64,000 nucleotides of DNA from Escherichia coli (GCF_050920415.1 NZ_CP169309.1); one strand, 5' to 3'; positions 7,928 to 16,064 are shown, numbered from the stretch's first letter. The notes: generated by a model not told the origin, from the sequence alone. Numbers and translations are program-made.

Positions 7928-9316
7928 ATGGCACTGCAAAATGAGAAAAATAGTCGTTATCTTTTGCGCGACTGGAAACCAGAAAACCCGGCCTTCTGGG
8001 AAAATAAAGGAAAGCATATTGCACGAAGAAACCTCTGGATATCAGTCAGTTGTCTACTTCTTGCCTTCTGTGTCTGGATGCTATTTAGCGCAGTTACTGT
8101 TAATCTCAATAAAATCGGTTTTAATTTCACTACCGATCAACTCTTTTTATTAACCGCATTACCCTCCGTTTCTGGCGCATTATTGCGTGTCCCCTACTCC
8201 TTTATGGTGCCTATATTTGGTGGACGCCGATGGACGGTTTTTAGTACTGCAATCCTGATTATTCCTTGTGTCTGGCTCGGAATTGCCGTGCAGAATCCGA
8301 ATACTCCTTTTGGGATATTTATCGTTATCGCTTTGCTATGCGGTTTTGCAGGTGCGAACTTTGCTTCGAGCATGGGCAATATCAGTTTCTTCTTCCCAAA
8401 AGCCAAACAAGGGAGCGCACTTGGGATTAATGGCGGATTAGGAAACTTAGGTGTAAGTGTGATGCAGCTGGTTGCGCCGCTGGTGATTTTTATCCCCGTA
8501 TTTGCCTTTCTCGGCGTCAATGGCGTACCACAGGCCGACGGTTCGGTAATGTCGCTGGCGAATGCCGCATGGATTTGGGTGCCATTACTGGCGATTGCCA
8601 CTATTGCCGCCTGGTTAGGGATGAATGATATCGCCAGTTCACGCGCGTCAATCGCCGATCAATTGCCTGTATTACAACGTCTGCATCTCTGGCTGCTCAG
8701 TCTTCTCTATCTCGCCACCTTCGGTTCGTTTATCGGTTTTTCTGCGGGTTTTGCCATGCTGGCGAAAACCCAGTTTCCGGATGTGAATATTCTGCGTCTG
8801 GCGTTCTTTGGCCCATTTATTGGTGCCATCGCGCGGTCGGTTGGTGGTGCTATTTCCGATAAATTCGGCGGCGTGCGGGTGACGTTGATCAACTTCATTT
8901 TTATGGCGATTTTCAGCGCCCTGCTGTTCCTTACCTTACCGGGCACAGGCTCTGGTAATTTCATCGCATTTTACGCCGTCTTCATGGGGTTGTTTCTGAC
9001 CGCGGGTCTGGGAAGTGGTTCTACTTTCCAGATGATCGCCGTCATCTTTCGCCAGATAACGATTTATCGCGTCAAGATGAAAGGCGGCAGCGATGAACAG
9101 GCTCAGCGGGAAGCGGTCACCGAAACGGCGGCAGCATTGGGCTTTATCTCAGCGATTGGCGCAGTTGGCGGCTTTTTTATTCCGCAGGCGTTTGGCATGT
9201 CGCTCAATATGACCGGCTCGCCGGTAGGTGCGATGAAAGTGTTTTTGATCTTCTACATCGTTTGTGTGCTGCTGACCTGGCTGGTTTATGGTCGGCGGAA
9301 GTTCAGCCAAAAATAA
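7928..9316 (+). CDS. narU: Nitrate/nitrite transporter (MFS, NarK family)
   Basis: Track ORF 7886..9316; conserved protein begins MALQNEKNSRYLLRDWKPENPAFWENKGK at 7928; immediately upstream of narZ. Confidence 0.9.
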   Translation: MALQNEKNSRYLLRDWKPENPAFWENKGKHIARRNLWISVSCLLLAFCVWMLFSAVTVNLNKIGFNFTTDQLFLLTALPSVSGALLRVPYSFMVPIFGGRRWTVFSTAILIIPCVWLGIAVQNPNTPFGIFIVIALLCGFAGANFASSMGNISFFFPKAKQGSALGINGGLGNLGVSVMQLVAPLVIFIPVFAFLGVNGVPQADGSVMSLANAAWIWVPLLAIATIAAWLGMNDIASSRASIADQLPVLQRLHLWLLSLLYLATFGSFIGFSAGFAMLAKTQFPDVNILRLAFFGPFIGAIARSVGGAISDKFGGVRVTLINFIFMAIFSALLFLTLPGTGSGNFIAFYAVFMGLFLTAGLGSGSTFQMIAVIFRQITIYRVKMKGGSDEQAQREAVTETAAALGFISAIGAVGGFFIPQAFGMSLNMTGSPVGAMKVFLIFYIVCVLLTWLVYGRRKFSQK

Positions 9317-9323
9317 GAAATCG

Positions 9324-9378
9324 ATGCCTGACACGTCTTATCAGGCTACAACCGTGTCGCATCCGACAAGGCATCAGA
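9324..9378. repeat. REP-like palindromic element in the narU-narZ spacer
   Basis: TGCCTGACACGTCTTATCAGGCTACAACCG resembles the REP motif at 17045..17078; weak. Confidence 0.3.
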
Positions 9379-9410
9379 TCCCAATTCATTCCTGGAGCAG
9401 GAGTTATGTC

Positions 9411-13151: not shown

Positions 13152-14692
13152 AAATACGTTCGCAAGTCGGCATGGTGCTTAACCTCGATAAATGTATCGG
13201 CTGCCATACCTGTTCGGTGACCTGTAAAAACGTCTGGACCGGACGCGAAGGCATGGAGTACGCATGGTTTAACAACGTCGAAACCAAACCGGGCATTGGT
13301 TATCCGAAAAACTGGGAAGATCAGGAAGAGTGGCAAGGCGGCTGGGTCCGCGATGTCAACGGTAAGATCCGCCCGCGTCTGGGCAGCAAGATGGGGGTGA
13401 TTACCAAAATCTTCGCCAACCCGGTGGTGCCGCAGATTGACGATTACTACGAACCTTTCACCTTCGACTACGAACATTTGCATAGCGCGCCAGAAGGTAA
13501 ACACATTCCTACTGCCCGCCCACGTTCGCTGATTGACGGCAAACGGATGGACAAAGTGATCTGGGGGCCAAACTGGGAAGAACTGCTGGGCGGTGAGTTC
13601 GAAAAACGTGCTCGCGACCGCAACTTTGACGCCATGCAAAAGGAGATGTACGGTCAGTTTGAAAATACGTTCATGATGTACCTGCCGCGCCTGTGCGAAC
13701 ACTGCCTTAACCCCAGCTGCGTGGCGACCTGCCCCAGCGGCGCGATCTACAAACGCGAAGAAGACGGTATTGTGCTGATCGATCAGGACAAATGCCGTGG
13801 CTGGCGTTTGTGCATTAGCGGTTGTCCGTACAAAAAAATCTACTTCAACTGGAAAAGCGGTAAGTCAGAAAAATGCATCTTCTGTTACCCACGAATTGAG
13901 TCAGGCCAACCCACCGTGTGCTCAGAAACCTGCGTGGGTCGCATCCGGTATCTGGGCGTGCTGCTTTACGACGCCGACCGCATCGAGGAAGCGGCGAGCA
14001 CCGAACGCGAGGTTGATCTCTACGAACGCCAGTGCGAAGTGTTCCTCGATCCGCACGATCCCTCGGTGATCGAAGAAGCCCTGAAACAAGGTATTCCACA
14101 AAATGTGATTGAAGCTGCCCAGCGTTCGCCAGTCTACAAAATGGCGATGGACTGGAAACTGGCGCTACCGCTGCACCCTGAATATCGCACCCTGCCGATG
14201 GTCTGGTACGTTCCTCCGCTGTCACCGATTCAGTCCTATGCAGATGCGGGCGGCTTGCCGAAAAGCGAAGGCGTGCTGCCCGCCATCGAAAGCCTGCGTA
14301 TTCCGGTGCAATATCTCGCCAATATGTTGAGTGCCGGTGATACCGGTCCGGTACTGCGGGCGCTGAAACGGATGATGGCGATGCGCCACTATATGCGTTC
14401 ACAAACCGTGGAAGGTGTTACCGATACCCGCGCCATTGACGAAGTAGGCCTGAGCGTCGCCCAGGTCGAAGAGATGTATCGCTACCTTGCCATCGCCAAC
14501 TATGAAGATCGTTTTGTCATTCCAACCAGTCATCGGGAAATGGCGGGTGATGCTTTCGCAGAACGCAACGGCTGCGGCTTCAGCTTTGGCGACGGTTGCC
14601 ACGGCTCAGACAGCAAATTCAACCTGTTCAACAGTAGCCGTATCGATGCCATCAACATTACCGAAGTGCGCGATAAAGCGGAGGGAGAATAA
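13148..14692 (+). CDS. narY: Respiratory nitrate reductase Z, beta subunit (Fe-S)
   Basis: 514 aa with multiple Cys clusters (CIGCHTCSVTC, CEHCLNPSCVATCPSGA); ATGA overlap with narZ stop. Confidence 0.95.
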   Translation: MKIRSQVGMVLNLDKCIGCHTCSVTCKNVWTGREGMEYAWFNNVETKPGIGYPKNWEDQEEWQGGWVRDVNGKIRPRLGSKMGVITKIFANPVVPQIDDYYEPFTFDYEHLHSAPEGKHIPTARPRSLIDGKRMDKVIWGPNWEELLGGEFEKRARDRNFDAMQKEMYGQFENTFMMYLPRLCEHCLNPSCVATCPSGAIYKREEDGIVLIDQDKCRGWRLCISGCPYKKIYFNWKSGKSEKCIFCYPRIESGQPTVCSETCVGRIRYLGVLLYDADRIEEAASTEREVDLYERQCEVFLDPHDPSVIEEALKQGIPQNVIEAAQRSPVYKMAMDWKLALPLHPEYRTLPMVWYVPPLSPIQSYADAGGLPKSEGVLPAIESLRIPVQYLANMLSAGDTGPVLRALKRMMAMRHYMRSQTVEGVTDTRAIDEVGLSVAQVEEMYRYLAIANYEDRFVIPTSHREMAGDAFAERNGCGFSFGDGCHGSDSKFNLFNSSRIDAINITEVRDKAEGE

Positions 14693-15387
14693 TGCAGATC
14701 CTCAAAGTGATCGGCCTGTTGATGGAGTACCCGGACGAGCTGTTGTGGGAGTGTAAGGACGACGCGCTGGCATTAATCCGCCGCGACGCGTCGATGCTCA
14801 CCGATTTTGCACTCGACCTGCTCAACGCGCCGCTGCTGGATAAACAGGCCGAATGGTGTGAAGTGTTCGACCGCGGGCGCACCACGTCGCTGCTGCTGTT
14901 CGAACATGTTCATGCCGAATCCCGCGATCGAGGCCAGGCAATGGTGGACCTGCTGGCGGAGTACGAAAAGGTCGGTCTGCAACTGGATTGTCGGGAACTG
15001 CCCGATTATCTGCCGCTGTACCTGGAGTACTTAAGTGTGCTGCCGGACGATCAGGCAAAAGAAGGATTACTCAACGTTGCGCCGATCCTCGCCCTGCTTG
15101 GCGGACGCTTAAAACAACGCGAGACACCGTGGTACGCGTTATTTGACGCCCTTTTGCAACTGGCAGGAAGTCCCCTGTCAAGTGACAGTGTCACAAAACA
15201 AATTCGTAGTGAAGAGCGTGACGACACCCGCCAGGCGCTGGATGCGGTGTGGGAAGAAGAACAGGTGAAGTTTATTGAAGATAACGCCACGGCGTGTGAC
15301 AGCTCGCCGCTTAATCAATATCAGCGACGCTTTAGCCAGGATGTCGCGCCGCAGTACGTCGACATCAGTGCGGGAGGTGGGAAATGA
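14692..15387 (+). CDS. narW: Nitrate reductase Z assembly chaperone (delta)
   Basis: 231-aa ORF between beta and gamma subunits; TAATG overlap with narY. Confidence 0.9.
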
Positions 15388-16064
15388 TTCAGTATCTGAA
15401 CGTCTTTTTTTACGATATCTACCCGTACATTTGTGCGACGGTGTTTTTCCTTGGCAGCTGGCTGCGCTATGACTACGGGCAGTACACCTGGCGCGCCTCC
15501 TCGAGCCAGATGCTCGATAAACGCGGGATGGTGATATGGTCGAATCTGTTCCATATCGGCATTTTGGGGATCTTCTTCGGGCACCTGTTCGGCATGTTAA
15601 CGCCGCACTGGATGTACGCGTGGTTTTTGCCAGTGGCAGCGAAACAACTAATGGCGATGGTGCTCGGCGGTATTTGCGGCGTGTTGACGTTGATTGGCGG
15701 TGCAGGACTGCTGTGGCGCAGGCTGACAAATCAGCGTGTGCGTGCTACTTCCACCACGCCGGATATCATCATCATGAGCATATTGCTGATCCAATGTTTG
15801 TTGGGGCTAAGTACCATACCGTTTTCAGCACAGTATCCTGATGGTAGCGAAATGATGAAACTGGTGGGGTGGGCGCAAAGTATCGTCACTTTCCGTGGAG
15901 GATCGTCAGAAATGCTTAACGGCGTAGCGTTCGTCTTCCGCCTGCATCTGGTATTGGGAATGACCATCTTCCTGCTCTTTCCGTTCACCCGACTGGTGCA
16001 TGTGTGGAGCGCGCCGTTTGAGTACTTTACTCGTCGGTATCAGATTGTGCGTTCGCGGCGATAA
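15384..16064 (+). CDS. narV: Respiratory nitrate reductase Z, gamma subunit (cytochrome b)
   Basis: 226-aa polytopic membrane ORF; ATGA overlap with narW. Confidence 0.9.

Follow-up and report, generated by a model that had tools for sequence, protein, structure and literature searches.

An intact, ordinary narU-narZYWV locus in Escherichia coli, with overlapping gene junctions and an eroded REP element between narU and narZ

Escherichia coli carries two paralogous sets of genes for respiratory nitrate reductase and an associated transporter, narK-narGHJI (nitrate reductase A) and narU-narZYWV (nitrate reductase Z, NRZ; b1469-b1465 in strain K-12). Passages in PMC8139620 (citing Spector et al. 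1999) and PMC11417348 describe NRZ expression as RpoS-dependent and belonging to stationary phase and stress, rather than as induced by Fnr or NarL. Gene overlaps like those within these operons have been assayed elsewhere. Four of five native E. coli 4-nt overlaps tested were translationally coupled, while the fifth, bioBF, was uncoupled and initiated de novo (PMC6728339). Coupling collapses once the distance exceeds about 20-38 nt, and genes for heteromeric complexes show a 4.5-fold enrichment in short overlaps (PMC10666635).

Here we describe the narU-narZYWV locus in a 64,000-nucleotide stretch of E. coli DNA, hereafter the window. The locus is an intact, ordinary E. coli narU-narZYWV, encoding nitrate reductase Z and the NarU transporter, and comprises five genes:

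7928-9316, plus strand: narU, nitrate/nitrite MFS transporter, 462 aa (PGAP, NF011608)
9411-13151, plus strand: narZ, nitrate reductase Z alpha subunit, 1246 aa (TIGR01580, PGAP)
13148-14692, plus strand: narY, beta (Fe-S) subunit, 514 aa (TIGR01660)
14692-15387, plus strand: narW, NarJ-type molybdenum cofactor assembly chaperone, 231 aa (NF011628)
15384-16064, plus strand: narV, gamma subunit (dihaem cytochrome b, membrane anchor), 226 aa (TIGR00351)

The original prediction had named these genes, their order and the architecture expected of a second nitrate reductase, and annotation, profile searches and a comparison against K-12 narZYWV and narGHJI confirm all of this. Positions 7700-16200 match the record NZ_CP169399.1 of E. 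coli MFDS1022581 at 100%, and the RefSeq/PGAP coordinates of all five genes in that record are those in the window. Full 64-kb identity with this record, which had been expected, was ruled out by a one-base difference at 16946 and a 1336-bp insertion, both outside the operon. Across complete E. coli genomes the locus is nearly universal (5424 of 5426), and it sits between the same neighbours as in K-12, with yddE and nhoA downstream and yddG and fdnG upstream. The reading frames of all five genes contain no frameshift or internal stop.

All five proteins pass curated NCBIfam cut-offs and match their profiles end to end. NarU scores 1019.7 bits against NF011608, the model named 'NarU' (cut-off 836), over residues 1-462 of 462, and is 99.1% identical to K-12 NarU and 75.7% to NarK. 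NarZ scores 2330 bits against TIGR01580 (cut-off 1084; residues 2-1234), with 99.5% identity to K-12 NarZ and 78.9% to NarG. As expected of a NarG-type alpha subunit, it combines this equivalog match with the FS0 motif H-x3-C-x3-C-x34-C (H50/C54/C58/C93) and the Asp ligand of Mo (D223). NarY (981 bits against TIGR01660, cut-off 524; 99.2% identity to K-12 NarY) has the four Cys groups of a beta subunit, serving three 4Fe-4S clusters and a 3Fe-4S cluster in which Trp replaces the fourth Cys; each of the 15 cluster Cys, like the Trp, has its counterpart in the alignment with NarH. NarW matches NF011628 at 504 bits (cut-off 410; 1-231 of 231) and TIGR00684 at 116 bits, and is 96.1% identical to K-12 NarW and 58.5% to NarJ; its gene lies between those for beta and gamma, in the order alpha-beta-delta-gamma, as befits the chaperone. 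NarV (427 bits against TIGR00351, cut-off 106) aligns its haem ligands H57, H67, H188 and H206 with H56, H66, H187 and H205 of NarI, as a gamma subunit should. The best PDB matches of the locus proteins are NarU (4iu8, the closest solved structure to window NarU), NarG (1q16_A, over the full length of NarZ) and NarJ (8jzd, for NarW). Judged from these sequences, narZYWV encodes a membrane-bound respiratory nitrate reductase of the NarGHI type, DMSO reductase family type II, with NarZ as its Mo-bisMGD/FS0 catalytic subunit and with predicted quinol:nitrate oxidoreductase activity.

Membership of nitrate reductase Z, not A, follows from Z-type orthology to K-12, passing scores against the NarU- and NarW-specific NCBIfam models, and the K-12 neighbourhood. 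The window proteins are 96-100% identical to K-12 NarU/Z/Y/W/V, compared with 58-79% to NarK/G/H/J/I. The five genes differ from those of K-12 at 371 nucleotides, with only 23 amino-acid changes, a pattern indicating that they are under purifying selection; NarV is 100% identical to its K-12 counterpart though 27 nucleotides differ.

One coordinate required correction. The left edge originally claimed for the operon, 9288, is not a gene boundary. It falls inside the 3' end of narU, which starts at 7928, upstream of the narZ start at 9411, and a span beginning at 9288 therefore leaves out narU despite including it in its title. The frame is open from 9288, and a narZ beginning there would encode 1287 aa, with a 41-residue N-terminal extension overlapping narU. 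We give this start virtually no credence. Position 9288 is the first in-frame ATG of a mechanical ORF (9288-13151) that overlaps narU in another frame. In contrast, the NarG profile starts at residue 2 of the 9411-initiated protein, whose N-terminus MSKLLDRFRYFKQKG matches NarG, and PGAP likewise places the start at 9411. The putative extension changes frame between E. coli alleles that differ by a 13-bp indel, the narU-narZ spacer varies from 16 to 260 bp across taxa, and a Shine-Dalgarno (SD) motif sits 7 nt before 9411:

9394-9403, plus strand: narZ ribosome-binding region GGAGCAGGAG, in which AGGAG ends 7 nt before the ATG (SD duplex -6.9 kcal/mol)

We thus rejected 9288 as an ORF-finder artefact; profile, N-terminus, indel, SD and PGAP all favour 9411. 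CAGGAG upstream of narZ is kept in nearly all of 62 loci from other taxa. A hairpin sequestering the narZ SD was also considered and dropped, as folding there is not significant (z = -0.13).

Between narU and narZ lies a spacer whose predicted length of 94 bp is exact:

9317-9410, plus strand: narU-narZ spacer, 94 bp, from the end of the narU stop at 9316 to the narZ ATG at 9411
9325-9349, plus strand: decayed REP (Z2-like) remnant TGCCTGACACGTCTTATCAGGCTAC, 25 nt with a 6-bp stem and a 9-nt loop, from alignment to true REPs
9358-9368, plus strand: tail CGCATCCGACA of a second, inverted, largely deleted REP, from comparison within Escherichia

The 'REP-like palindrome' reported in this spacer stands in part. 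Weak palindromes are present (GCCTGA/TCAGGC at 9326-9331/9341-9346 and GATGCCT/AGGCATC at 9323-9329/9369-9375) and the REP homology is real, but the element is a truncated REP/BIME remnant rather than an intact REP. Its homology, visible only by alignment to a true BIME and to other species, includes the consensus ...CTTATCAGGCCTAC end, here CGTCTTATCAGGC-TAC with one C deleted. The stretch TGCCTGA...CGTCTTATCAGGC-TAC and the tail CGCATCCGACA align to a BIME in the same window, the remnant matching the true REP at 17046-17075, and to full REPs that other Escherichia have at this site. E. albertii and E. coli E69 retain GTAGGTCGGATAAGGCG..GCCGCATCCGACA at the position of the tail, and where the window has the remnant, E. 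whittamii carries a full REP. What sets the spacer element apart is a stem of 6 bp versus about 13, GGCCTAC minus one C, and loss of most of the second REP; nothing is left of a complete, roughly 35-nt imperfect palindrome with a stable stem-loop beyond that 6-bp stem. Because of these deletions, ungapped REP consensus searches missed it.

Folding tells a similar story. A 31-nt segment holding the remnant folds alone at -8.2 kcal/mol (z = -3.0), versus -13.2 and -21 kcal/mol for true REPs, the latter a full REP, and for the spacer as a whole the fold is no more stable than that of shuffles (z = -1.14). An Rfam scan of 6000-18500 (E<=1) returned no match in the operon or spacer, no naRNA4-type match in the spacer and, unlike at narK, no NarS-like sRNA after narU. 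The K-12 annotation lists no repeat features in the two stretches consulted, and is therefore no evidence for or against a REP. In its present state the remnant probably has little or no function; it could affect mRNA stability or processing.

The spacer is polymorphic. The K-12 allele is 81 bp, 13 bp shorter, with the indel in the REP remnant; Escherichia spacers measure 81, 94, 106, 109, 126 and 260 bp, and two alleles account for about 65% and 34% of complete E. coli genomes. Among the 62 loci from other taxa the shortest spacer has 16 bp and the longest 260 bp. In other genera the narZ SD is immediately preceded by a conserved box and a hairpin. A BIME eroding differently by lineage might leave length alleles that set different NarU:NRZ expression ratios between strains, whether by stabilising the mRNA 3' end, by partial termination or by stalling ribosomes at the narU stop. 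We regard this as a long shot; if true, NRZ expression would be a naturally polymorphic trait. The polymorphism and the hairpin of other genera are small leads for studies of NRZ regulation.

Most likely, the locus yields a single narU-narZYWV transcript, the five genes being transcribed together from upstream of narU. This reading draws on a crude consensus scan without signals and on published qPCR in another strain, in which all five genes had higher transcript levels after a point mutation upstream of narU (PMC11417348). The scan, for sigma-70 promoters and terminators, found none in the spacer and none upstream of narU; its single promoter-like match, at 15359-15388, was set aside, with one found against 8.1 expected by chance. 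RpoS-type promoters, or an internal promoter in the narU 3' end, may be present.

The alternative is that narU and narZYWV form separate units, with a promoter in the spacer or the narU 3' end and the REP remnant marking the 3' end of the narU transcript. Elsewhere, REP elements stabilise upstream 3' ends, as in malE-malF, and the box and hairpin upstream of the narZ SD in other genera could be a promoter or a 5'-end structure. The nitrate reductase genes are also usually named as an operon narZYWV (PMC8139620). Against this, neither a sigma-70-like promoter nor a terminator turned up when the spacer was scanned, and its hairpin has only 6 bp and no U-tract. Moreover, narU lies directly upstream of narZ, across a short spacer, in every locus that reaches far enough (60/60, of 62), and the mutation upstream of narU acted on all five transcripts (PMC11417348). 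We consider separate units improbable and favour the single transcript. At its far end, a structured spacer follows narV:

16074-16102, plus strand: GC-rich hairpin GGCCGGA...TCCGGCC, 10 nt after the narV stop, without a U-tract (folding)

The 85-nt spacer after narV folds at -28.4 kcal/mol (z = -3.2). Lacking a T-run, the hairpin was not called by the terminator scan; it is a possible candidate for the 3'-end structure of the operon.

Within narZYWV the genes overlap. The original prediction placed overlapping start and stop codons at three junctions, and each is present as described:

13135-13151, plus strand: narZ/narY junction, SD AGGAGG at 13135-13140 (-10.3 kcal/mol), ATGA overlap at 13148-13151 (narZ TGA, narY ATG)
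14680-14694, plus strand: narY/narW junction, SD GGAGGGAG at 14680-14687 (-10.0 kcal/mol), TAATG overlap at 14690-14694 (narY TAA, narW ATG)
15373-15387, plus strand: narW/narV junction, SD GGAGGTG at 15373-15379 (-11.6 kcal/mol), ATGA overlap at 15384-15387 (narW TGA, narV ATG)

Reference narGHJI and narZYWV operons share this gene order and overlap at all internal junctions. All three junctions have the geometry of coupled pairs (a 4- or 1-nt overlap, or a gap of at most about 10 nt), whereas overlaps occur in only 3 of the 33 further co-directional pairs of neighbours that are annotated in the window. We surveyed the junctions in the 62 narU-narZ loci from other enterobacterial genera, with denominators that differ by junction. 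The narZ/narY gap was -4 in 35/35 and the narY/narW gap -1 in 22/22; the narW/narV gap was -4 in 16/19 and -1 in three Pantoea, so that a 4- or 1-nt overlap was kept in 35/35, 22/22 and 19/19. Each surveyed junction has a strong SD motif. The -4/-1/-4 geometry persists over at least 15 genera, including Escherichia, Citrobacter, Klebsiella, Kluyvera and Pantoea, while the codons flanking the junctions vary. Overlaps and geometry are beyond chance. The survey is modest documentation that -4/-1/-4 is essentially invariant over the sampled Enterobacteriaceae and Erwiniaceae genomes, an invariance in keeping with the view in the literature that genes for heteromeric complexes retain their short overlaps.

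Because this geometry exceeds chance and is kept in related loci with strong SD motifs, we infer, on good grounds, translational coupling at the narZYWV junctions. A gap of 94 nt is too long for reinitiation, so narZ would need de novo initiation, for which it has an AGGAG motif of its own. The starts of narY, narW and narV lie 4, 1 and 4 nt before the preceding stop, behind a strong SD embedded in the upstream gene, and thus a ribosome finishing one cistron could reinitiate on the next. Such termination-reinitiation, suggested by the geometry, by its conservation and by published assays of other gene pairs in E. coli, would tie together synthesis of the subunits of one complex.

The overlaps could instead reflect compact packing only, with narY, narW and narV each initiating de novo at its own SD, independently of the gene upstream. 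The strong SDs at all three starts (-10 to -11.6 kcal/mol) would equally permit this, and bioBF, one of the five tested overlaps, behaves so (PMC6728339). NarW, moreover, serves as a chaperone rather than as a stoichiometric subunit, so there is no obvious need for strict 1:1 coupling. Packing alone sits less well with the retention of exact -4/-1/-4 spacing across genera despite varying flanking codons, with the three overlaps (-4/-4/-1) also kept by the narGHJI paralogue, and with the four of five tested overlaps that were coupled (PMC6728339). We judge it unlikely, though a more serious contender than separate transcription units, and prefer coupling.

An intact Z locus, most likely with one transcript, with junctions at which a ribosome could reinitiate and with an eroded REP, is the explanation we hold with high confidence. 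Everything at this locus is already known. A textbook operon is confirmed as intact and correctly delimited in this genome, with one start coordinate corrected, and the outcome matters little beyond that.

Set beside known systems, the junctions resemble those of Huber et al. (2019, 2023) in their 4-nt and 1-nt overlaps, their SDs inside the upstream gene and their heteromeric-complex subunits (PMC6728339, PMC10666635); those pairs were assayed, whereas for narZYWV coupling is predicted from sequence. E. coli narK-narGHJI is a paralogous set with the same order, three internal overlaps and all cofactor ligands conserved. It differs in overlap pattern (-4/-4/-1 versus -4/-1/-4), in protein sequence (58-79% identity), in its weaker internal SDs (-5.8 to -9.5 kcal/mol), and in a narK-narG gap of 515 bp with a separate promoter region and the NarS sRNA, where narU-narZ has 94 bp and no Rfam match. 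Closest of all is K-12 narU-narZYWV. It departs from the window by 3.6-7.9% nucleotide divergence per gene, by its 81-bp rather than 94-bp spacer, and upstream, where the window has an intact porin, a 419-aa hypothetical protein and a 416-aa LRR protein and K-12 has yddL/yddK/yddJ remnants. Gene order, protein lengths (462/1246/514/231/226 aa), overlaps (-4/-1/-4), SD motifs and the flanking yddE/nhoA are shared by the two, and their NarU/Z/Y/W/V proteins are 96.1-100% identical.

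Five co-directional genes on the + strand make up the narU-narZYWV locus of the window, as both the ORF list and direct reading show. narU precedes a 94-bp gap, and the four ORFs 3' of the gap have their stop-side ends at 13151, 14692, 15387 and 16064.

Features of the locus, with Shine-Dalgarno (SD) motifs scored by predicted duplex with the 16S 3' end
7928-9316, +, narU (462 codons), followed by the 94-bp gap
9411, +, narZ start, the real one by profile, SD and PGAP
13135-13140, +, SD AGGAGG before narY, within narZ (-10.3 kcal/mol)
13148-13151, +, narZ/narY junction ATGA, by direct reading
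14680-14687, +, SD GGAGGGAG before narW, within narY (-10.0 kcal/mol)
14690-14694, +, narY/narW junction TAATG, by direct reading
15373-15379, +, SD GGAGGTG before narV, within narW (-11.6 kcal/mol)
15384-15387, +, narW/narV junction ATGA, by direct reading

The original prediction placed the left boundary of the locus at 9288, which does not hold: the open frame containing narZ has its first in-frame ATG at this position, which falls among the final narU codons but in another frame. Several observations reject it as the narZ start. The match to the NarG profile begins at 9411, as does that to the NarG N-terminus (MSKFLDRFRYFKQKG in NarG, MSKLLDRFRYFKQKG here), an AGGAG ending 7 nt before 9411 points to the same ATG, and PGAP places the start there. 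Moreover, E. coli alleles differ by a 13-bp indel that breaks the frame of the putative extension, and spacer length varies from 16 to 260 bp across related taxa. The 94-bp narU-narZ spacer of the same prediction is exact (narU end 9316, narZ ATG 9411) and itself implies 9411; the span was therefore inconsistent and the reading sound. A two-codon mini-ORF, ATG TCA TGA (9406-9414), overlaps the narZ start (ATGTCATGA) and has in Escherichia a second GGAG 7 nt upstream. Its ATG at -5 occurs in 44 of 62 related loci and is absent from narG; the mini-ORF may have arisen by chance or may serve as a start-stop element.

All three junction overlaps lie exactly where the first reading had put them. Only 3 of 33 non-nar co-directional neighbour pairs annotated in the 64-kb stretch overlap (1 or 4 nt in two cases), and published surveys put the rate at ~15% in most prokaryotic groups (PMC6728339), so three successive overlaps are unusual for random neighbours. 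They are typical for genes of one complex, and in E. coli short overlaps are enriched 4.5-fold where the genes encode heteromeric complexes (PMC10666635).

We surveyed conservation with a degenerate pattern for the narZ 5' end, taking one genome per species, which gave 62 loci from Escherichia, Citrobacter, Klebsiella, Raoultella, Kluyvera, Enterobacter, Pluralibacter, Pantoea, Serratia and others. All 62 score higher to NarZ than to NarG, and narU directly precedes narZ in each of the 60 reaching far enough upstream. Among loci long enough, the narZ/narY gap is -4 in 35/35, the narY/narW gap -1 in 22/22, and the narW/narV gap -4 in 16/19, with -1 in three Pantoea; the junction SD motifs are conserved as well. 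Overlaps occur at every junction of the older paralogue narGHJI too, although as -4/-4/-1 rather than the -4/-1/-4 of narZYWV. Because the surveyed loci keep their gaps and narGHJI overlaps throughout, the tight junctions are a conserved feature. In the representatives of Kluyvera genomosp. 3, Citrobacter amalonaticus, Serratia rubidaea and Trabulsiella odontotermitis (loci L027, L037, L050 and L067), narZ is cut short by an early stop, at 208, 283, 378 and 619 aa, and NarZ homology runs on past the stop; these are either pseudogenes or assembly errors.

Since four of five native E. coli 4-nt overlaps tested are coupled (PMC6728339), translational coupling at the narZYWV junctions is a reasonable expectation. 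narY, narW and narV would owe at least part of their translation to ribosomes that, having terminated on the preceding cistron, reinitiate 1-4 nt upstream. The strong SD motifs at all three internal starts would also permit initiation independently of the upstream cistron. narZ would be initiated de novo, because the 94-nt gap exceeds the ~20-38 nt past which reinitiation is lost (PMC10666635). A consensus scan of the narU-narZ spacer found no terminator-like or sigma-70-like site; from this and the universal narU-narZ adjacency we infer that narU and narZYWV probably form one five-gene transcript.

The REP-like palindrome proposed for this spacer is real: short inverted repeats and homology to a true BIME support it, and the copy is degenerate rather than intact. 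The whole spacer folds no better than shuffled sequence, and an Rfam scan finds no match in it. It aligns to a true BIME of the window (17046-17123, between yddE and nhoA) as TGCCTGA-CACGT-CTTATCAGG-CTACAACCG, the REP of that BIME being TGCCTGATGCGCTTCGCTTATCAGGCCTACAACCG. The latter element is intact, with a Z2-type REP and an inverted Y-type REP, and gives the region's sole Rfam match, a weak one (naRNA4, 24.5 bits, E = 0.74). The spacer remnant forms a 6-bp stem of -8.2 kcal/mol. In E. whittamii, whose spacer is 106 bp long, this position is occupied by a full REP with a hairpin of -21 kcal/mol. A second, inverted REP survives in E. albertii (spacer of 126 bp) and in E. coli E69 (109 bp), but only its tail CGCATCCGACA (9358-9368) is left in the window. 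The 81-bp spacer of K-12 has lost a further 13 bp, and that of one GTDB 'E. coli' representative is 260 bp long and contains extra REPs. Because relatives keep fuller REPs at this site and K-12 has lost more, the spacer is an eroding BIME, for which a present function is unlikely. Escherichia spacers are 81, 94, 106, 109, 126 and 260 bp long (window 9317-9410; L002 8592-8672; L008, L013, L025, L042); the differences arise as REP units erode to different extents or are gained. Judged by identity bands and hit lengths, ~34% of complete E. coli records have the 94-bp type and ~65% the 81-bp type.

Klebsiella, Enterobacter, Kluyvera, Raoultella, Lelliottia and related genera lack the REP remnant; immediately 5' of the SD they have instead a conserved box with a GC hairpin: tGTGAGCAGTGTAACC-ACGGGG-loop-CCCCGT-CAGGAG. 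Absent from the window, these occupy the last ~50 nt before the narZ ATG (loci L010, L011, L015, L023, L026-L028, L033, L034, L038, L040, L041, L047, L048, L050, L055, L056, L059, L062, L063, L067 and L068). In the hairpin, G-C to A-U double changes affect two of the four consensus pairs (4 and 2 sequences). Possible roles for it are a 5'-end or processing structure or a piece of an internal promoter; we know of no description of it and the box before the narZ SD.

The surrounding region, 2621-17978 (yddG to nhoA), is unusually divergent from K-12, by 3.6-10.6% nt per gene (nhoA 10.6%, narW 7.9%), with Nar proteins still 96-100% identical, and is a rare haplotype of a high-diversity region. 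Upstream of narU, 3762-7603 holds an intact porin gene (annotated ompC) and genes for a 419-aa hypothetical and a 416-aa leucine-rich-repeat protein, where K-12 has only short or pseudogenised yddL, yddK and yddJ. Downstream of yddH, mobile-element genes cluster at 18761-21836: a fragment of an IS256 transposase, a transposase of ISEc1 (ISAs1-like) and ltrA, for a group II intron reverse transcriptase/maturase. Relative to the otherwise near-identical E. coli MFDS1022581 (NZ_CP169399.1), the window has a single-base difference at 16946, within yddE, and a 1336-bp insertion at 23962-25290. With two overlapping ORFs (136 and 301 aa) and imperfect ~33-nt terminal inverted repeats, the insertion looks like a putative IS3-family (IS2-like) element.

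The nar locus itself is familiar. Positions 7700-16200 are 100% identical to MFDS1022581, and the stretch is present in 5424 of 5426 complete E. coli genomes, mostly at 90-99%; identity of at least 99% occurs in only 2 of 5451 E. coli records, the next best being 97.7%. The five genes differ from K-12 by 371 nt and only 23 amino acids (NarV by 27 nt and none), so they are under strong purifying selection, with no sign of decay. Cofactor ligands are complete against the NarGHI list of the 1Q16 structure, checked for numbering against K-12 sequences: NarZ H50, C54, C58, C93 and D223, fifteen Cys and a Trp in NarY, and four His in NarV. The nearest solved structures are NarG (1q16), NarJ (8jzd) and NarU itself (4iu8).

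The expected architecture of a second nitrate reductase, as originally predicted, is borne out. PGAP on NZ_CP169399.1 calls narU, narZ, narH (=narY), narW and narI (=narV) at coordinates exactly matching ours, and all five proteins pass curated NCBIfam cut-offs full length, including NarU-specific NF011608 and NarW-specific NF011628. The K-12 narZ locus has the same flanks, with yddG and fdnG at one end and yddE and nhoA at the other. Comparison with the reference operons, the check proposed with the prediction, confirmed orthology to K-12 narZYWV and paralogy to narGHJI: identities to K-12 NarU/Z/Y/W/V are 99.1, 99.5, 99.2, 96.1 and 100%, against only 75.7, 78.9, 78.8, 58.5 and 72.0% to NarK/G/H/J/I. 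Every testable defining feature was found, and apart from coordinate 9288 the prediction was correct. narU-narZYWV is a duplicate of narK-narGHJI, tied to stationary phase and stress and not to anaerobic nitrate induction (PMC8139620, PMC11417348); the locus in the window is this already described system, with nothing new in it.
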